Shown here: positions 4,560-35,823 of the stretch, one piece after another
Position numbering within the stretch: the first letter of the stretch is position 1
Layout: every line of letters starts with the position of its first letter
Source of the DNA: Escherichia phage forsur
Direction: 5' to 3' (one strand)
Sequence record: MN850617.1
Length of the DNA: 42,476 bases
The notes under the pieces: model-generated
Seen by the model: only the letters and a program-made list of their open reading frames with translations
Databases searched by the model: none
What the model was told of the DNA's origin: nothing
Position numbers and translations under genes: made by a program

Positions 4560-4586
4560 ATAAAGCATTGTATTCCTTGCTTATTT

Positions 4587-4609
4587 ATGAAAGTGACTAT
4601 AGTGATAGA
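4587..4609 (+). promoter_or_regulatory. candidate phage RNAP promoter (T7/SP6-class core ACTATAG), putative +1 G at 4602
   Basis: ATGAAAGTGACTATAGTGATAG; the ACTATAG heptamer matches the -6..+1 core shared by T7 and SP6 promoters. Lies in the intergenic gap just after the RNAP gene. Exact inverted copy at 26463..26485; 14-mer direct copy at 4854..4867. Confidence 0.5.
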
Positions 4610-25871: not shown

Positions 25872-26039
25872 GGGCATCTGAAAGCTGACACATTGAACAG
25901 GCCGTGGGTGCAATACCCCGGCTTGAAAATTGAACGTTTATGCGTGGGCCTCCCTCGACCCGAATGACCGCGCGTACCCCCATGACGTGTGCGCGGATTA
26001 GCCTCGCGACGTGCGCGATATTGCTCGCGTGCGCTGCGC

Positions 26040-26450
26040 GGCGCGTCAAGAGGATTGCCTGCGTGCGGTATAGCTCGTGCGTGTCGCGTTTCATCGTCTG
26101 CCGTGTGGCGTGCTGTGCGCTGTCCTGCTGGCTGTGCTGTGCGGTGCTGTCCTATGGGGACGCTCTGCGCTGGCTGTGCTGTGCTGCGTGCTGCGCTCGG
26201 TCGGGCGGGTATCTGTCTCTTTTGCCGTGGTACGCTCTGCGCCGTGGTGGTGCTGTGTGGTGGTGGTGCTGCCGTGGTGCTGTCCTGTCTGCTGGTCTAC
26301 TGTCTGCGCCGCCAGCTCTGCGCGTCATGCTCTGCTACCTGCTGCTACTGTCCTACTGCGTTCACTGGCTGCCGCCTGTCATCCTGTCGGATTCCATCCG
26401 TTGCCGTTCCGCGCTCGCTTGTTTCGGCTGCGCCGCGCTCGCTCTGCGTA
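26040..26450. repeat. A-depleted (C/G/T only on + strand) low-complexity block with degenerate GCTG/CTGTG/GGTG repeats; candidate terminal-repeat region
   Basis: Adenine is nearly absent on the + strand over ~400 bp, so no + frame contains a stop; non-coding position between the last late gene and the early promoters. Confidence 0.6.
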
Positions 26451-26462
26451 TCTAGCGATACA

Positions 26463-26485
26463 TATCACTATAGTCACTTTCATAA
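26463..26485 (-). promoter_or_regulatory. inverted exact copy of the T7-class promoter-like element at 4585..4607 (would fire leftward into the A-depleted block)
   Basis: + strand TATCACTATAGTCACTTTCATAA is the reverse complement of 4585..4607 (23/23). Confidence 0.4.
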
Positions 26486-26499
26486 TTATCTATTGATAT

Positions 26500-26590
26500 C
26501 AGTAACTTATAACCTATCTGATAACGGTATCTATCCTATGCAATAACCTATTCAATCAAATATTTATTCCTAATGATTACAGTAACTTAT
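26500..26590. repeat. AT-rich segment with 11-bp direct repeat CAGTAACTTAT (26500..26510 and 26580..26590)
   Basis: Read directly; copies are 80 bp apart, each preceded by TGAT; candidate origin or packaging iterons. Confidence 0.4.
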
Positions 26591-26622
26591 CCACTATTTG
26601 AGCTATTCAGTGAAAATAAATC

Positions 26623-26651
26623 TTGCAATGCTGTTTGTGATTTGCTGTAAT
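26623..26651 (+). promoter_or_regulatory. host sigma70-type early promoter P1
   Basis: -35 TTGCAA (26623..26628), 17-bp spacer, extended -10 TGcTGTAAT (hexamer 26646..26651); A-rich UP-like tract upstream. Confidence 0.6.
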
Positions 26652-26726
26652 TCTCATCGCCGGGTAGCAGAACATCGCTACACGGTGGCAAGACGGTAAC
26701 ACTGCTCTTTAACAATCTGGAGTGTA

Positions 26727-26755
26727 TTGACAAGGCAAGCTCACTATGCTGTAAT
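26727..26755 (+). promoter_or_regulatory. host sigma70-type early promoter P2
   Basis: -35 TTGACA (26727..26732), 17-bp spacer, extended -10 TGcTGTAAT (hexamer 26750..26755). Confidence 0.65.
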
Positions 26756-26863
26756 GCTTCCAGTCAGCCAGACAAGCCAAACAGTCATGGATAAAGACGT
26801 TAAAACCCGCGCAGGCTAACTGGTACGGATTATTCATCTCAGAATGGGCGCTGAATAAAACGG

Positions 26864-26892
26864 TTGACAGGATGAAACGAGTATGCTGTAAT
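26864..26892 (+). promoter_or_regulatory. host sigma70-type early promoter P3
   Basis: -35 TTGACA (26864..26869), 17-bp spacer, extended -10 TGcTGTAAT (hexamer 26887..26892); AATAAAA upstream. Confidence 0.65.
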
Positions 26893-26944
26893 ACGCTCCA
26901 GATTGACAGGGCAAGCAAGCCTGACAGTCAGTAGTAAAAAGTAG

Positions 26945-26973
26945 TTGACAAGCTGAATACACTGTGTTGTAAT
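26945..26973 (+). promoter_or_regulatory. host sigma70-type early promoter P4
   Basis: -35 TTGACA (26945..26950), 17-bp spacer, extended -10 TGtTGTAAT (hexamer 26968..26973); GTAAAAAG upstream. Confidence 0.65.
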
Positions 26974-27451
26974 CAGCACCGAGTTGGAAGGATGCAAAAC
27001 ATCCTGCTCTGAGTGAACGCAAACTGGCCGCGTAGTGTCACGGCTCACTGGGTATCCGCCGCAGGTTGGAACTGGGTGAGGCATCGCCGAAAGGCAACGG
27101 TATCGCAACAATGCTAACGCCGTAGGGGTAGCGCCTGATGCAAGGTAACGGAGAAGCGCGATAGACGCAGCGCAGTATCAGTACAATACCAAACGTCTTA
27201 TAAGGCGCGGAGTATAGCGGGTAGGTAGTCAAACGGCTTGTTAGCTGGCAACGGTGAGCAAGATACGCGACGGACTGCTGGAAGACTCCTGAGAGTGGAT
27301 GCAGACAATATCCACAGCGCGAAATGGGCGGGGCGATTTTTCAGGGTAGTGAATCCGACAAGCCAATCAATGCCACTGAGTGCAGACTGTACGGCGCGTC
27401 ACAATGGGTTCACTATCCACCTGAAAATAGCCAACAACTGGAGAAATAACT

Positions 27452-27844
27452 ATGTACCGTATCTATGCAAGCGCATATCGTCAGAACAACGCTGAGTGTG
27501 TTAATCTGGCGCTTCATTGCAAGGCACTGCGAACGGTGCAGGATATGTTCGGAGTGATTCCGGTCACACTGACAGGCAAGTTCGACAATGCGTATGAGTT
27601 AAGCATGGTCTTTCCTGTCGATGGAATCTACGAAATCAGACAGGCTGTTAAGCTGTTCTGTAAAGCCTTTGAACAGGACTGCATCATGGTAGTGACCGAT
27701 GACAATGATGCAATCTTCATGGATTCACCATATCCGGGCAAGCCTGCTGGCAAGTTTGTCAGCAAGACAGAAGCGGAGATGGAAGCCGGGCAGTTCACTG
27801 CTTGGACTTACGATGGTGAGCAATTTTGGGTAGTGGAGGCGTAA
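27452..27844 (+). CDS. hypothetical early protein (130 aa), first gene after the leader
   Basis: ATG 27452 with GGAG 8 nt upstream; ORF in track. Confidence 0.7.
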   Translation: MYRIYASAYRQNNAECVNLALHCKALRTVQDMFGVIPVTLTGKFDNAYELSMVFPVDGIYEIRQAVKLFCKAFEQDCIMVVTDDNDAIFMDSPYPGKPAGKFVSKTEAEMEAGQFTAWTYDGEQFWVVEA

Positions 27845-27845
27845 T

Positions 27846-27917
27846 ATGTTCACTGCACTCTGTGTGATAGCGGCGGCGTGCTGGCTGATTGACCAGCGCC
27901 TGTCTAAGCGAGCCTGA
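27846..27917 (+). CDS. tiny hydrophobic peptide (23 aa), speculative
   Basis: ATG follows upstream stop by 1 nt with GGAGG 8 nt upstream; MFTALCVIAAACWLIDQRLSKRA. Confidence 0.25.
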   Translation: MFTALCVIAAACWLIDQRLSKRA

Positions 27918-27918
27918 T

Positions 27919-28002
27919 ATGTGGGACTTACTGGTAGCGTTGTTCTGGTTTGTCTTTGCAGGCTTGTGGATTTACTGGTTGACTCGTCCCAAATTATGGT
28001 GA
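27919..28002 (+). CDS. tiny hydrophobic peptide (27 aa), speculative
   Basis: MWDLLVALFWFVFAGLWIYWLTRPKLW; weak RBS. Confidence 0.25.
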   Translation: MWDLLVALFWFVFAGLWIYWLTRPKLW

Positions 28003-28008
28003 CTGCCT

Positions 28009-28030
28009 AATGCGTCTTGCGAGGCGCATT
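28009..28030 (+). promoter_or_regulatory. intergenic hairpin with UUGCGA hexaloop (copy 1 of 4)
   Basis: AATGCGTC-TTGCGA-GGCGCATT; 8-bp stem including one G-U pair. Confidence 0.45.
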
Positions 28031-28066
28031 GTGAAGTAACCAACCAACAACCCGACGAGGTGTATC

Positions 28067-28594
28067 ATGACTACTGTTAAATATACTGCATTCAAAGATG
28101 CTGCGGCGCTGGACAAAGCTATCGAAGCGACTGTCAAAAAGGCGCACTCACTCCGTAACGATATTCAGAATGTTGCGGTCGGTATTATCCTGCACGCTTA
28201 CCATCACGGCGACTACACTCGTGCTGAGTCGTTCACTCACCAACTGGGTGATGGCGTCCGTGGTAAGGCACTGGTTGACTGGTTCGTCCAGTTCGGCGGC
28301 CTGATTGTGGGTGAGCATGAAGATGGCAAGTCCGGCTTCGTTGGCTGGAAGGGTGCCGACTTCATCAAAGAGAACATCGACAAGGCGAAAGCCACGATGT
28401 GGTGGACTTGCAAGCCAGAAGCGGCCTTTGATGGCTTCGACCTGCAAGATGCGCTCGAAAAGCTGATTGCCAAAGCTGAAAAGGCAATGAACAAGGCGAA
28501 CGAGCTGCGCCACGAAGGGCGCGATGAGGATGCGAACAAGGTTGTCGTGCCTCAGAACGTGCTGGACGGCCTGCGCAAGCTGAAAGCTGCGTAA
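28067..28594 (+). CDS. hypothetical early protein (175 aa)
   Basis: ORF in track; RBS GAGG upstream. Confidence 0.7.
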   Translation: MTTVKYTAFKDAAALDKAIEATVKKAHSLRNDIQNVAVGIILHAYHHGDYTRAESFTHQLGDGVRGKALVDWFVQFGGLIVGEHEDGKSGFVGWKGADFIKENIDKAKATMWWTCKPEAAFDGFDLQDALEKLIAKAEKAMNKANELRHEGRDEDANKVVVPQNVLDGLRKLKAA

Positions 28595-28607
28595 GCGGGA
28601 TTGACTC

Positions 28608-28629
28608 AAGCCATCTTGCGAGGTGGCTT
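28608..28629 (+). promoter_or_regulatory. intergenic hairpin with UUGCGA hexaloop (copy 2 of 4)
   Basis: AAGCCATC-TTGCGA-GGTGGCTT; followed by GGCAATTCTGCC at 28633..28644. Confidence 0.45.
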
Positions 28630-28667
28630 TATGGCAATTCTGCCCCAACAATTACGGAGTATCATCC

Positions 28668-28952
28668 ATGACCACTAAAACTGTTCTGGCCTACGTCACC
28701 AAGAAAGGCGAAGAAGTGTACGGCTATGCTGTGTCTATCGACGGCGGCCACAACTACCTGCATCACGTTCGTGAAGAAGGTGAACCGACTGACCACGATG
28801 GCATTCTGGAAACGCTGAAAGGCATCCCGCTGCCGCACGAAATCATCTGTATGCTGGCTGGCCAGACGGAAGATGACCTGCAACTGCGTCACGGCGACGA
28901 CCTGACCATTCAGGGTATCGGCAGCTTCGAAGCTGACGTAGACGACGAATAA
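28668..28952 (+). CDS. hypothetical early protein with acidic C-terminal tail (...GSFEADVDDE)
   Basis: ATG 28668 preceded by GGAG; ORF track starts it earlier (GTG 28623) across the hairpin, which is unlikely. Confidence 0.7.
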   Translation: MTTKTVLAYVTKKGEEVYGYAVSIDGGHNYLHHVREEGEPTDHDGILETLKGIPLPHEIICMLAGQTEDDLQLRHGDDLTIQGIGSFEADVDDE

Positions 28953-28962
28953 GCGTTGTCCT

Positions 28963-28986
28963 GCTGCATCCTTGCGAGGGTGCAGC
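28963..28986 (+). promoter_or_regulatory. intergenic hairpin with UUGCGA hexaloop (copy 3 of 4)
   Basis: GCTGCATCC-TTGCGA-GGGTGCAGC; followed by GGCAATACTGCC at 28989..29000. Confidence 0.45.
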
Positions 28987-29025
28987 GTGGCAATACTGCC
29001 TTATTCCAATCTGAGGATTAATCCT

Positions 29026-29106
29026 ATGTCTACACTGAAACTGGTACTGATTTCTAACATCGCTGCTGACGCTTTCGACGCTGATGACGTGGACTTCTCT
29101 GCGTGA
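29026..29106 (+). CDS. tiny acidic peptide (26 aa), possible remnant of the acidic-tail family
   Basis: ATG 29026 with GAGG 8 nt upstream; MSTLKLVLISNIAADAFDADDVDFSA. Confidence 0.3.
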   Translation: MSTLKLVLISNIAADAFDADDVDFSA

Positions 29107-29113
29107 TACCTTA

Positions 29114-29135
29114 CTGCCTCGTTGCGACGGGGCAG
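29114..29135 (+). promoter_or_regulatory. intergenic hairpin with UUGCGA hexaloop (copy 4 of 4)
   Basis: CTGCCTCG-TTGCGA-CGGGGCAG; followed by GGCAATCATGCC at 29139..29150. Confidence 0.45.
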
Positions 29136-29171
29136 TGCGGCAATCATGCCCAACCTAACTGGAGATTTACC

Positions 29172-29453
29172 ATGGCTACAATCAACGTGTATTCCCTGAG
29201 CAACGGCGGTCTGGCATTCATCGCTGGTGATAAGGTAGACGAAGCGCCGTCGCTGGGCGTGACGCCGAAACCGGAGGCCAGCCGTGATGATGTTATCGCG
29301 GAAGTCAAGGGTGCGCTGGAAGACCTCGGCGGTCTGCTGTTCGTCCTGAATGGTGGCAAGCTGTCGGTTGAAAAGCTGGACGCGCTGGAACCTGTCTTTG
29401 TTGAGAGCTTCGAAGCTGACAACATCGACCTCGCTGCTTTCGCTGACGCCTAA
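29172..29453 (+). CDS. small acidic early protein, tandem paralog A (MATINVY...SFEADNIDLAAFADA)
   Basis: ATG 29172 preceded by GGAG; alignable end-to-end with 29791..30099. Confidence 0.75.
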   Translation: MATINVYSLSNGGLAFIAGDKVDEAPSLGVTPKPEASRDDVIAEVKGALEDLGGLLFVLNGGKLSVEKLDALEPVFVESFEADNIDLAAFADA

Positions 29454-29491
29454 GCATAACCCGAAACCCACAACCAAAGAGGACAATCAAC

Positions 29492-29722
29492 ATGGCTAAG
29501 TTTGAACTGGTACGCTTCATTGACCCGAACGATGGCGAAGAAACCTTCGCGCAGTTTGCTGATGACCGCTCGCTGGTCGCCATCTACAACACTGAGCGCA
29601 CGGCGCGGCGCTGGTTCAAGGAAGACGACGACATGGACAGCATCGAAGAAGCGCTGGCTATGCCGGGCTACGCTGAGGCTGTCGAGGCAGCACTGAAAGG
29701 CGAAGTCGTAGCGACTGCGTGA
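29492..29722 (+). CDS. hypothetical small acidic protein (76 aa)
   Basis: ORF in track; RBS AAGAGGA upstream. Confidence 0.7.
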   Translation: MAKFELVRFIDPNDGEETFAQFADDRSLVAIYNTERTARRWFKEDDDMDSIEEALAMPGYAEAVEAALKGEVVATA

Positions 29723-29790
29723 TTTCTGTCAGCCCATCCATAGCGGTGGGCTGTAGGGCAATCATGCCACAACAACTGAGGGTATACACC

Positions 29791-30099
29791 ATGGCAACTA
29801 TCAACGTCTACAAAACTATCACTGGCTCACTGGTATTCGTAGTGGGTGAACTGCGTGAAGATGCACCAATCGTTGGCGTGTCTCTGCGTGAAGGGGCAAC
29901 CGAGGCTGACGCCATCGCTGAGATTCGTCAGAACATTGAGAACCTCGGCGGCCTGTTCTTCCTGCTGCAAGGTGGCAGCCTGAACCTCGCTAAGTTGCAG
30001 GAGCATGAGCCTGTACTCGTGACCAGCTTCGAAGCGGAAGATGTAGACGCCAGTGACTTCGAAGCCAGCCGCGCTGACGAAGAAGAAGCAGGCGAGTAA
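29791..30099 (+). CDS. small acidic early protein, tandem paralog B (MATINVY...SFEAEDVDASDFEAS...)
   Basis: ATG 29791; upstream hairpin 29730..29753 and GGCAATCATGCC at 29757..29768 mirror paralog A. Confidence 0.75.
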   Translation: MATINVYKTITGSLVFVVGELREDAPIVGVSLREGATEADAIAEIRQNIENLGGLFFLLQGGSLNLAKLQEHEPVLVTSFEAEDVDASDFEASRADEEEAGE

Positions 30100-30212
30100 T
30101 GAGCGCCATCGAGGTGGCACTGATGTTGGGCTGTCATGCAGGTATTGGCAGCCTCGTCATCTACATCGTTGGCGCGGCACGCAAATCATACGATAGGAGA
30201 ACCAAGCTATGA
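30099..30212 (+). CDS. tiny hydrophobic peptide (37 aa), speculative
   Basis: ATG overlaps upstream stop (TAATG); MSAIEVALMLGCHAGIGSLVIYIVGAARKSYDRRTKL. Confidence 0.3.
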   Translation: MSAIEVALMLGCHAGIGSLVIYIVGAARKSYDRRTKL

Positions 30213-30385
30213 AGTTTGCAGTATCGCGCAGCGGTGCAAGCCATGCGGCACACAAGTTGCACTTCCTGTTCCACTCGCTGTACCTTACAGCGGCTGCGAT
30301 GGAGGGTCACTTGTTCTATAGCCTCATGGCTGGCGGCACCTTACTGTTCATGGTTGGCACGGCGGTGCTGGGCAATGAACATTAA
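30209..30385 (+). CDS. small hydrophobic protein (58 aa), speculative
   Basis: ATG overlaps upstream stop (ATGA), AGGAG upstream; contains LMAGGTLLFMVGTAVLG. Confidence 0.3.
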   Translation: MKFAVSRSGASHAAHKLHFLFHSLYLTAAAMEGHLFYSLMAGGTLLFMVGTAVLGNEH

Positions 30386-30548
30386 TCTGTTACAACGGGT
30401 CAAGGGTATGGAGCGTCGGCACTGGGAGACGGCCATCATCCTTAAGGTAAGCATAAGCGCTGGACTGGCTGCTGCTTATTTCCTGCCAACCACCGCAGCA
30501 ATAGCCGTTGGTATCAGCACCAACCTGCTATGGTTGTGGAAGTTGTAA
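30375..30548 (+). CDS. small membrane protein (57 aa)
   Basis: In-frame ATG within track ORF 30216..30548; contains AIAVGISTNLLWLW; followed by terminator-like hairpin. Confidence 0.4.
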   Translation: MNINLLQRVKGMERRHWETAIILKVSISAGLAAAYFLPTTAAIAVGISTNLLWLWKL

Positions 30549-30562
30549 GCAGTGGATTACTC

Positions 30563-30590
30563 AAGGCTGTCCAGCGGGTAGCCTTTTTGA
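30563..30590 (+). terminator. intrinsic terminator candidate
   Basis: AAGGCTGTCC-AGC-GGGTAGCCTT stem-loop followed by TTTTGA. Confidence 0.5.
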
Positions 30591-30612
30591 AATCCATTGA
30601 CGAGAGGGGAGC

Positions 30613-30951
30613 ATGGCACTACATCGAGTGAAGGTAATGCGTGGGCCTGACTTCGAAGACGGGCAAGAGATTGCTGCATTGCAGTACCGCTTGCCGTCCG
30701 GTCAGGAGGGGCTGGTCATCATTGACCAGATTGAAATCATGGGTGAGCACATGCTGATTGCTGATGCCACCGATGAGCAAATCATTGAGCGCTGCAAGGC
30801 ATACGCCGGGGGCAGACCGTTCATCATCGACCTGATGAATGACCAGCACATCAATGCTGATGGTTCGCTGCTGTTCAAGGCATGGCTTTATGCTCTCACA
30901 ACAATCTACGAAGGGGAGATGTATCTCTTTGGCGTAGACAACGAGGGTTAA
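30613..30951 (+). CDS. hypothetical protein (112 aa)
   Basis: ORF in track; RBS GAGAGGGGAG upstream. Confidence 0.7.
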   Translation: MALHRVKVMRGPDFEDGQEIAALQYRLPSGQEGLVIIDQIEIMGEHMLIADATDEQIIERCKAYAGGRPFIIDLMNDQHINADGSLLFKAWLYALTTIYEGEMYLFGVDNEG

Positions 30952-30954
30952 ATC

Positions 30955-31269
30955 ATGAAGGTAAGCAAAGGATATCTGTTCGTGCTGTTGATGCTGGCCA
31001 CCCTGTATCTCAGCACCGTGCATGTGGCACTGGCAGCCACTGTGGAGAAGGTGCATTTGGATGCGTATGACGTACCGCTGGGCGCACCTGATGGACAGGT
31101 GTACTCTGCTTGCGTCATTGACCTACGCAAAGGCGGCACTGTCAGCACACTGGCCTACGTTGGTGAGTGTGAGGATGTGCTGCCACACCTGAAAGAAAAG
31201 CTGGAGCATGATGGCGTGACCACCATCGTGACTCTCTCAATCAACGGTCATAACATCAACCTAACGTGA
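30955..31269 (+). CDS. secreted/periplasmic small protein with N-terminal signal peptide
   Basis: MKVSKGYLFVLLMLATLYLSTVHVALA-ATVEK: charged N-region, hydrophobic core, ALA-A cleavage-like site; mature part has two Cys. Confidence 0.7.
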   Translation: MKVSKGYLFVLLMLATLYLSTVHVALAATVEKVHLDAYDVPLGAPDGQVYSACVIDLRKGGTVSTLAYVGECEDVLPHLKEKLEHDGVTTIVTLSINGHNINLT

Positions 31270-32988: not shown

Positions 32989-33213
32989 GCTCACCGTAAC
33001 CAAATCACCCACCGGATTATTCTGGTGGGTAGTTGATAAGCTGCAACCAAATAAACCTTTGGCTGTGCGTGATACAAAGTGGGAAGCCGAGAGTAAACTC
33101 GAAGACCTTCAACGTATTATGCGGAATGTTATTCCAGCTTAGCCATCTACTCATGCCAGTTATTATTTAGCTGGCATTATGAAGGTGACTATATTGGACA
33201 ACCCGGAGGAAAT

Positions 33214-34557: not shown

Positions 34558-35823
34558 GTGCTTGACAAGCTGTTGTTAACGGTGATGCGCGAGCGCGGGA
34601 AGTTCAACTCCCTGCGACACGCCATCCCGGAAGATACGATGAGCCAGACCACGAGCTATATGCTCAAGGCTTACGGCTCATACTTTGATGCGTTCCCGGA
34701 CAGTGACTACATTGACATTGACACGCTGGGTACGCACGTTCGTTTAAAGACAGGCAGCACGCCTGAACAGATGGCAGCCTTTGATTCGTTGTGCTCGCAG
34801 CTTCGAGAGTACAAGCCAACGAAGGAACAGAAGGAAGGTGTGCTTGACCAGCTCGTCGAGTTGGATACCGCTGGCCGTGCTAACCTGCTAATGCAGAGGT
34901 ACGACAATGGTGAGGAACTGGATATTATCTATGAGCTGGGCCGTCTTGCTGAGGGCGCACGTCGCAGCCGGGGGCAGTCATCTGTCACTGATTACGTGGA
35001 CGATGATGTGGTTGATATTCTCAACCGGACGGATGATAATCACGGCCTCAAGTTCGGTCTGCTCTGCTTGCAAGACAGCGTTCGCGTACTTCTACCCGGC
35101 GACTCCGTTGCCATCGGTGCTCGACCTGACAGCGGAAAGACTTCCTTCATCGCGTTTAACCTTACGCGAATGGCGGCGACAGCAGCGAAGCTCTATCCGG
35201 GCAGGCCAATCCTCTGGTTCAACAACGAGGGGCAGGGCATCAACATCATCCCGCGCATCTACCAAGCGGCGCTCAACTGCACGCTCCCAGAACTGAAAGA
35301 ACTGGGAGAGGACAGGGCTAAGCTGCACGCTGCGTATGCCAAAGCGCTGGGTGCGCCAGCCAACATCATTCGTGTGAAGGATATGCACGGCGCATCGCTG
35401 GCGAAAGCTGAGCAGGTTATCGAAGCGATGAACCCATGCGTTGTGGTGTGGGATATGCTGGCGAACTTCAAGCTGTCTGTCTCCGATGCCAACAGCAACA
35501 AGGCGTCGCAGGTTGAGCAGCTATGGCAGGAGGTACGTGAGCTGGCTGTGCGCCATGACTTCGTATCAATGGCCACGGTGCAGGTATCAGCCGATGGCAA
35601 GGATGATATGTTCCCTGCGCTGGATGCACTCAAGGATTCCAAGACTGGTATCCAAGGTGCGACTGATGTTATCGTCATGCTCGGCAGCGTGGATGACCCA
35701 TCGCTGGCAGCACGGCGCGGCGTCAGCACCCCAAAGAACAAACGCCAGATTGCTGGGCGTCCATCCAACGTGCGGTCACAGGTTCACTTCTTTGCTGACC
35801 GCTGCCAATTCGAGGATATGTAA
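34558..35823 (+). CDS. DnaB-like replicative DNA helicase
   Basis: 421 aa; Walker A GARPDSGKTSF resembles the DnaB/T7 gp4 family P-loop; GTG start after AGGAGAG. Confidence 0.8.
   Translation: MLDKLLLTVMRERGKFNSLRHAIPEDTMSQTTSYMLKAYGSYFDAFPDSDYIDIDTLGTHVRLKTGSTPEQMAAFDSLCSQLREYKPTKEQKEGVLDQLVELDTAGRANLLMQRYDNGEELDIIYELGRLAEGARRSRGQSSVTDYVDDDVVDILNRTDDNHGLKFGLLCLQDSVRVLLPGDSVAIGARPDSGKTSFIAFNLTRMAATAAKLYPGRPILWFNNEGQGINIIPRIYQAALNCTLPELKELGEDRAKLHAAYAKALGAPANIIRVKDMHGASLAKAEQVIEAMNPCVVVWDMLANFKLSVSDANSNKASQVEQLWQEVRELAVRHDFVSMATVQVSADGKDDMFPALDALKDSKTGIQGATDVIVMLGSVDDPSLAARRGVSTPKNKRQIAGRPSNVRSQVHFFADRCQFEDM

Follow-up and report, generated by a model that had tools for sequence, protein, structure and literature searches.

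The early mRNA of bacteriophage T7 is polycistronic and is cut at intercistronic RNase III sites, which are irregular hairpins spanning about two helical turns. A comparable arrangement was found in Escherichia phage forsur (MN850617.1; "the window" below is the whole stretch of 42,476 nucleotides analysed), in which positions 28,668 to 30,099 carry a run of small open reading frames (ORFs) for acidic proteins, four of them preceded by an RNA stem-loop. Like the T7 sites R0.3, R0.5, R1, R1.1 and R1.3, the forsur stem-loops are intercistronic elements of a host-polymerase type early operon in a member of the Autographiviridae, and each forms an irregular hairpin, some two helical turns long, whose upper and lower stems are parted by an internal loop. 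In contrast to the T7 sites, to which they have no sequence similarity, their lower stem always takes in the end of the upstream gene, from its last codon through the stop codon, and their helices are somewhat shorter (16–24 bp). Internal loops limit RNase III to a single cut, leaving a protective 3' hairpin (PMC1540722).

A second described system is that of the promoter-early stem-loops (PeSLs) of T4-like phages (Arbiol et al. 2010, PMC2839356; Comeau et al. 2014, PMC4122927). As in forsur, these are short conserved stem-loop cassettes repeated between small non-essential early ORFs of a hypervariable region, and they coincide with the breakpoints of insertions, deletions and replacements between close relatives. 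However, PeSLs combine a terminator hairpin with a strong promoter of the sigma-70 type, whereas the forsur cassettes have no recognisable promoter or U-run and reach into the upstream coding sequence.

We consider it fairly probable (about 0.6) that, in this phiKMV/T7-like phage, the region lies within a variable array of small early genes for acidic proteins, several of the products belonging to one alpha/beta superfamily and the genes being arranged in units bounded by stem-loops.

The early gene array

Five ORFs make up the region:

28668..28952, + strand: ORF A (identical to forsur_31), 94 aa, net charge -14, ending ...IGSFEADVDDE; placed in the A/I/H branch of the proposed acidic early-protein superfamily
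29026..29106, + strand: tiny ORF, 26 aa, remnant of a G4-family gene
29172..29453, + strand: ORF C, 93 aa, net charge -11, placed in the C/E/F branch; predicted last strand PVFVESFE, then the extension ADNIDLAAFADA
29492..29722, + strand: ORF D, 76 aa, net charge -10, ending ...VATA, without an SFEA tail and not similar to the other families
29791..30099, + strand: ORF E, 102 aa, net charge -14, paralog of C, with the tail SFEAEDVDASDFEASRADEEEAGE

The four ORFs listed in the initial annotation (A, the tiny ORF, C and E) are all present, and the acidity that it noted is borne out by the charges of A, C and E, which are strongly acidic. The acidic array proteins are 76–102 aa long with pI values of 4.0–4.5. 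The low dN/dS ratios between phages for A (0.06–0.37), C (0.04–0.40) and family F of the relatives (0.18–0.34), to be compared with 0.11–0.17 for a neighbouring conserved gene, indicate that these are real genes under purifying selection. Since the 38-nt spacer between C and D is unstructured (fold dG -0.2), these two genes form one hairpin-bounded unit.

The array was also read in 14 relatives: the Escherichia phage glasur, to which the forsur array region is 99% identical, Kc261, altidsur, Lidtsur, ROV85, J8-65, LF82-23, usur, RZ4, smaasur, HHU8, mellemsur, Ec1-ASingh and the Pantoea phage LIMEzero. It is bounded by the conserved phrog_1448 gene on one side and by a conserved 'MALHRVKV' gene on the other, and holds 1 to 7 small acidic ORFs per phage, which fall into recurring families labelled A, C/E, D, F, G4/J, H, I, K, L and N. 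This variable content agrees with the remark that bonnellviruses (the genus of phage forsur, family Autographiviridae) differ "primarily in small hypothetical genes" (PMC7552041).

The intercistronic RNA stem-loop

A matching hairpin and motif upstream of C and E had been pointed out in the initial annotation. The motif, GGCAATNNTGCC, occurs in exactly four copies in the whole window and, with its hairpin, precedes A, the tiny ORF, C and E. Folding of the intergenic RNA showed that hairpin and motif belong to a single two-tier stem-loop: below the visible hairpin lies a lower stem, to which GGCAAUNNUGCC contributes the 3' arm. With a few upstream codons added to the folded RNA, the partners of this arm prove to be the final sense codon of the upstream gene, its stop codon and the next bases (for example, GCG-UGA-UU with AAUCAUGC). 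The RNA element is well supported, and only part of it had been seen before. The copies are:

28593..28646, + strand: stem-loop 1, between the phrog_1448 gene and A; dG -27.2, z = -3.6, covariance model score 28.7 bits
28947..29006, + strand: stem-loop 2, between A and G4, about 24 bp; 33.5 bits
29099..29152, + strand: stem-loop 3, between G4 and C, upper stem of 11 bp; 68.2 bits
29715..29770, + strand: stem-loop 4, between D and E; 75.5 bits
31826..31880, + strand: fifth, weaker copy; 19.3 bits, E about 1e-3

The upper stem has 8–11 bp and the lower stem 7–13 bp, with internal loops of 1x1 to 3x4 between the tiers, and the fold z-scores of the four array stem-loops are -3.6, -3.5, -2.4 and -2.4. 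In stem-loop 1 the upper hairpin is GCCAUCUUGCGAGGUGGC and the lower stem is formed by GCGGGAUUG and CAAUUCUGC; in stem-loop 2 the lowest tier pairs GAAUAAG, i.e. the last Glu codon and the stop of A, with CUUAUUC; in stem-loop 3, GCG-UGA-U pairs with AUCAUGC of the GGCAAUCAUGCC motif; and in stem-loop 4, GCGUGAUUUCU pairs with AGG-CAAUCAUGC beneath an upper stem of CAGCCCAUC and GGUGGGCUG. The fifth copy likewise has the stop codon (GUG UGA UAA...) in its lower stem, paired with UUAUCA. Of about 40 cassettes, drawn from 9 phages, nearly all show the two-tier structure.

Covariation supports the structure. Among 16 aligned cassettes, 98.9% of the cells are paired, versus 36–52% in slid controls, and 6 pairs (23 cells) show compensatory changes, with none of 500 shuffles as good. 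A larger set of 35 distinct sequences, from 38 IMG/VR loci, has 97.3% of its cells paired (again 0/500 shuffles as good) and compensatory changes at all 8 upper-stem pairs; its alignment leans towards the structure, having been made by running the covariance model of the 16-cassette set on loci taken by a DNA pattern. The lower stem follows changes in the coding sequence: a stop codon altered from UGA to UAA is offset by AAUCAUGC becoming AAUUAUGC in LIMEzero and by AUUACGC in locus L034, and the synonymous last codons of A are matched by CUUACUC where the codon is GAG (altidsur) and by CUUAUUC where it is GAA (forsur). Since G.U pairs are frequent, only the sense strand can form the helix, and the element acts as RNA. 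No match to the stem-loop was found in Rfam.

The last codon of the upstream genes is almost always that of Ala (GCG), followed by UGA or UAA (28592-28594, 29104-29106 and 29720-29722 in forsur; also loci L002-L053). The C-terminal Ala of these proteins follows from the fact that last codon and stop codon belong to the lower stem. About a third of the upstream proteins end in Ala-Ala (KAA, AAA, EAA or VLAA), resembling ssrA-like ClpXP degrons; the Ala ending may reflect the RNA constraint only, or may be a protein signal as well.

Some GenBank genes start at the AUG inside GGCAAUCAUGCC (MPQLTEG..., MAILPQ...), namely in RZ4 (L009; 1386 and 2770), Lidtsur (L004; 2558) and ROV85 (L005; 3919). 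This AUG lies in the lower stem, has no Shine-Dalgarno sequence and keeps no constant frame, and the starts placed at it are probably wrong. A leader peptide or alternative start at the same AUG was rejected on the frame, the distance being 26 nt before C and 27 nt before E.

Homology and probable shared fold of the array proteins

C and E were correctly recognised as paralogs in the initial annotation: both start with MATINVY, and they share 47% identity over 90 aa (E=1e-28). They are not, as it had them, a consecutive tandem pair, for gene D stands between them and their divergence is old (dS 1.23). In most relatives the slot of E holds the paralog F, behind the same upstream cassette. Given this dS value and the position of E in the F slot, C and E are old paralogs that were brought together by cassette replacement, not by recent tandem duplication.

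A had been taken as unrelated to C and E, and BLASTP indeed sees no similarity between A and either of them. Profile comparison, however, finds remote homology and the same predicted order of secondary structure. The families link up as A with I (E=7e-11), I with H (E=7.5e-5), I with ORF9 of LIMEzero (E=1.7e-5) and C/E with F (E=4.4e-8). When the alignments were enlarged with database homologues, hhalign joined A/I/H to C/E/F with E=4.9e-5 over 55 collinear columns; the value was 0.0017 with the last strand and tail removed and 2.2e-4 for the C-terminal piece by itself, whereas the reversed control gave 0.28 and 30 column-shuffled controls all gave at least 0.087. Against the A family, the enlarged G4/J alignment gives a collinear match in the C-terminal half (E=0.0012), and no homology of D, K or M to the superfamily was detected in the profile comparisons.

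AlphaFold models built from the enlarged alignments (pLDDT, predicted local distance difference test; pTM, predicted template modelling score) gave the following strands (E) and helices (H):

Model of A: pLDDT 85, pTM 0.73; E2-13, E16-23, E30-34, H43-51, H58-64, H68-75, E79-91
Model of C: pLDDT 76, pTM 0.68; E2-8, E14-18, E26-30, H38-52, H55-60, H66-71, E75-82, H88-91

The element order b-b-b-a-a-a-b is common to both. It would follow that A, C and E, together with F, H and I of the relatives and possibly G4/J, form one phage-restricted superfamily of alpha/beta proteins of ~90 aa. Relatives of the family were not found in Pfam, PHROG or the PDB, and the family is rare, with 16 clusters among 1.84 billion representative proteins, all from these phages or similar contigs. 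The searches gave no homologue or fold match informative about function, and the proteins are an ordinary-looking but uncharacterised paralog family.

The SFEA motif and the C-terminal ends

The tails are as quoted in the initial annotation, with SFEA present in A, C and E. The tetrapeptide occurs 3 times in the 12,005-residue proteome, each time in the last 20 residues of these three proteins, versus an expected count of 0.14, and none of 2000 shuffles reached 3. In both models it lies inside the last beta-strand (residues 75-82 of C and 79-91 of A), which across the C/E/F family has the pattern h-x-h-x-[ST]-[FWYI]-[ED]-[AVI]. This placement, with the homology of A to C/E/F, indicates that SFEA, as judged from models and alignments, is a fold element inherited by descent, not a docking tail on unrelated domains. 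The proposal of a docking tail shared by different N-terminal domains thus fails for SFEA, which sits in the last strand of homologous carriers, and survives for the acidic extension of C and E, which is still a candidate. Beyond the last strand, this extension has the conserved sequence D[DNG][IV]DA[SAE]DF[EA], with a second aromatic residue, and is retained even in members only ~45% identical. The 10–20 residues past SFEA in C and E have pLDDT values of about 55–72 and may be flexible; if the proteins have a genuine tail for interaction, only the extension could be it.

The tail of the tiny ORF is of another origin. A G4-family gene of 111–113 aa begins at this start codon in glasur, Kc261, usur, RZ4 and other phages, the intact counterpart in glasur being glasur_4 (112 aa). 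The 11-bp repeat TGATGACGTGG lies at 2616-2626 and 2875-2885 in glasur, and relative to it forsur has lost, in frame, the 258 bp between the copies. The peptide AFDADDVDFSA is composed of residues 16-22 of the full G4 protein (AFDADDV) joined to its last four (DFSA). Since the deletion joins an N-terminal segment to the true C-terminus, what had been counted as a natural shared tail is an artificial fusion.

A docking motif is an unlikely rival explanation: an acidic-aromatic C-terminal motif carried by different proteins would bind them to one host or phage partner, the proteins acting as decoys or DNA mimics. In its favour, besides the conserved low-pLDDT extension of C and E past the fold, are the net charges of -10 to -14, the adjoining gene for an anti-restriction S-adenosylmethionine (SAM) lyase, and the occurrence of [DE]F[DESN] in the last 8 residues of G4 (DVDFSA), K (EDFEVA), L (GDFEVE or GDFEALE) and ORF6 of LIMEzero (DEFDA) and its absence from that position in the roughly 50 proteins that the window encodes outside the array; the pattern was, however, set post hoc, after the data had been seen. 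Compared with C/E, G4 shows a weak relationship and K none that could be detected. Against a docking motif stand the position of SFEA itself in a beta-strand of the common fold, the homology of A to C/E/F, the artefactual tail of the tiny ORF and the possibility that G4 is a homologue too (E=0.0012, as above).

The tails of SSB and of T7 gp2.5 and gp4, to which the array tails had been likened, are disordered and have Phe as their last residue, after an acidic run. The array resembles these systems in having acidic residues and Phe near the C-terminus in several proteins of one phage. In contrast, its first Phe lies in a beta-strand and its second is then followed by 1–13 residues. None of the ends (...FEADVDDE, ...AAFADA, ...DFEASRADEEEAGE, ...DFSA and ...DFE) has Phe in terminal position, and OB-fold or helicase proteins are not among the carriers, so that the SSB/gp2.5-type tail is not upheld. 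With Ocr and ArdA the array proteins share small size, strong acidity, early expression and a position beside another anti-restriction gene (in forsur, that of the SAM lyase), but they have no sequence or fold similarity to these or other known mimics. The DnaB-like helicase of the window (34585-35823) also has an aromatic-acidic end, ...FFADRCQFEDM, which bears a loose resemblance to the FE[AD] ends in the array.

Cassette boundaries in related phages

Among the 14 phages, gene content differs exactly at the boundaries of the cassettes, where H, K or N is present or absent. In mellemsur (L012, 4525-4594), a hybrid hairpin combines the left arm of the phrog_1448 cassette with the right arm of the F cassette; everything between these two cassettes is deleted, and only F is left of the array. 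The sequence conservation of the stem-loops suggests that they could serve as recombination joints, by which genes would be gained, lost and swapped as cassettes.

Two other rearrangements were seen. In ROV85 (L005, 3072-3602), the phrog_1448 gene and the C-terminal two-thirds of C are joined into one reading frame at a 'KPEA' that both have, and in usur (L008, 3516-3614) C is truncated after 29 residues.

Role of the stem-loops and rival explanations

The following features lie upstream of the array:

26727-26755, 26864-26892 and 26945-26973, + strand: three host-type early promoters, TTGACA-N17-TGCTGTAAT (repeat family D5)
27452-27844: SAM lyase gene (Pfam PF23780), following the three leader promoters
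28067-28594: phrog_1448 gene, 175 aa, widely conserved, directly before the array

A consensus scan of 26400-31000 found no + strand promoter outside the leader region, and none in the cassettes; it missed the three leader promoters because of their -10 element, TGTAAT. The whole early operon is probably driven by these promoters at 26.7–27.0 kb. They are strong and near-identical, with an extended -10 element, like A1-A3 of T7.

By analogy with T7, the likeliest role of the stem-loops, tentatively proposed at slightly under even chances, is that of RNase III processing sites of the T7 style. Each gene unit is bounded by the conserved two-tier mRNA stem-loop, at which the polycistronic early transcript from the three host promoters would be processed, or its 3' ends stabilised, as in T7.

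Several points weigh against this account of the array and its stem-loops: i) the helices are at the short end for E. coli RNase III, ii) cleavage by this enzyme is argued from the likeness to T7, iii) the link between A and C/E is remote, with an hhalign probability of 68%, iv) the models of A and C were compared by element order only, v) a BFVD search with the model of A finds the A, I and H families and not C/E/F, and vi) common descent alone leaves the D-x-D-F ends of G4, K and L unexplained.

It is improbable, in our view, that the stem-loops are instead promoters, terminators, attenuators or translational operators. They do lie 21–25 nt upstream of each start codon and contain a small inverted repeat, GGCA-N4-TGCC, to which a protein dimer could bind; a U-run comes after a related hairpin at about 30560-30590, and the PeSL cassettes of T4 join promoter and terminator functions (PMC2839356). 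However, no sigma-70-like promoter is found in or near the stem-loops, no U-run follows the four array hairpins, the Shine-Dalgarno sequences are unsequestered, and the motif is missing from the rest of the genome, where ATTATGAARGTGACTATA instead looks like the promoter of the phage polymerase; G.U pairs and covariation, moreover, indicate a sense-strand RNA. The particular candidates tried were all rejected: a sigma-70 promoter with the TTGCGA loop as -35 has no acceptable -10 or spacing; a sigma-54-like GG-N-GC has the wrong spacing; a phage-polymerase promoter is at odds with a motif confined to the array, and ATTATGAARGTGACTATA holds the expected promoter positions; and an intrinsic terminator lacks its U-run after the four array hairpins.

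A dual signal seems very unlikely. Here a ribosome reaching each stop codon would open the lower stem and so link the end of translation of one cistron to the processing or expression of its successor; the C-terminal Ala set by the RNA, often as an Ala-Ala like an ssrA-type degron, would time the breakdown of the early proteins; and the acidic D-x-D-F ends of several array families would dock onto a single host hub, the array being a diversifying set of decoys for targets in host defence or takeover.

Hardly credible is the view that SFEA is a by-product of its coding DNA, the 12-bp perfect palindrome AGCTTCGAAGCT in forsur, acting as a protein-binding or recombination site: the palindrome has more copies than expected (two exact copies, at 28923 and 29406, and two single-mismatch copies, at 30025 and 31744, versus 0.05 expected), and A and C share 15 identical nt (repeat family D9), but it is lost in relatives that keep FEA, and dN/dS is well under 1. 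The codons in the relatives are, for example, acc ttt gaa gcc, acg ttc gaa gca or agc ttt gaa gct, Ser sometimes being Thr, and those of FEA differ synonymously among phages. Since the peptide is conserved and the palindrome is not, selection on the tail is at the protein level. The 15 identical nt, AGCTTCGAAGCTGAC, at 28923-28937 in A and 29406-29420 in C, are so only in the lineage of forsur, glasur and usur, where A has Ser in place of the Thr of other phages; they may result from a small local gene conversion between paralogs.

Other features of the window

The 18-mer ATTATGAARGTGACTATA is present in 3 copies, versus 0.01 expected:

4584-4601, + strand: immediately past the RNA polymerase gene
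33176-33193, + strand
26469-26486, - strand

As a sequence, it looks like the promoter core of an SP6/T7-type phage RNA polymerase. Two copies are at sites expected for middle and late promoters; the third is on the opposite strand, beside the genome-end region, though all genes are on the + strand. The record is circularly permuted. Short, GC-rich direct repeats (CTGTGCTG-like units) are densely clustered at 26099-26294, between the lysis genes and the early promoters, and are probably part of a terminal-repeat or genome-end region. They are spanned by an ORF (25940-26455) for a Cys- and Arg-rich product of 171 aa, which may not be a gene.

A conserved hairpin of another type (GGCUGUCCAGCGGGUAGCC), with complementary arms GGAUUAC.../...GAAAUCC followed by UUUUU, is located at 30548-30612, upstream of the MALHRVKV gene. 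It is present in Lidtsur too and may be a leaky terminator.

Implications for early genes of phiKMV-like phages

With regard to function, our guess is that the array proteins are host-takeover or anti-defence effectors, which would bind host or defence proteins early in infection. Early expression, the neighbouring SAM lyase gene, strong acidity and fast turnover among close relatives fit such a role. With a part as DNA mimics, too, their charge and location would be compatible.

The array defines an uncharacterised, phage-restricted superfamily of acidic early proteins, which accounts for most of the gene-content differences between near-identical Bonnellvirus phages, the usual place of host-takeover and anti-defence genes. 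It is also a clear case of constraint on protein C-termini, an RNA structure within coding sequence fixing the last and stop codons of the upstream gene. For the early-mRNA biology of phiKMV-like phages, the stem-loops are testable processing sites, and natural variants such as mellemsur, with its minimal array, are ready-made deletion mutants.

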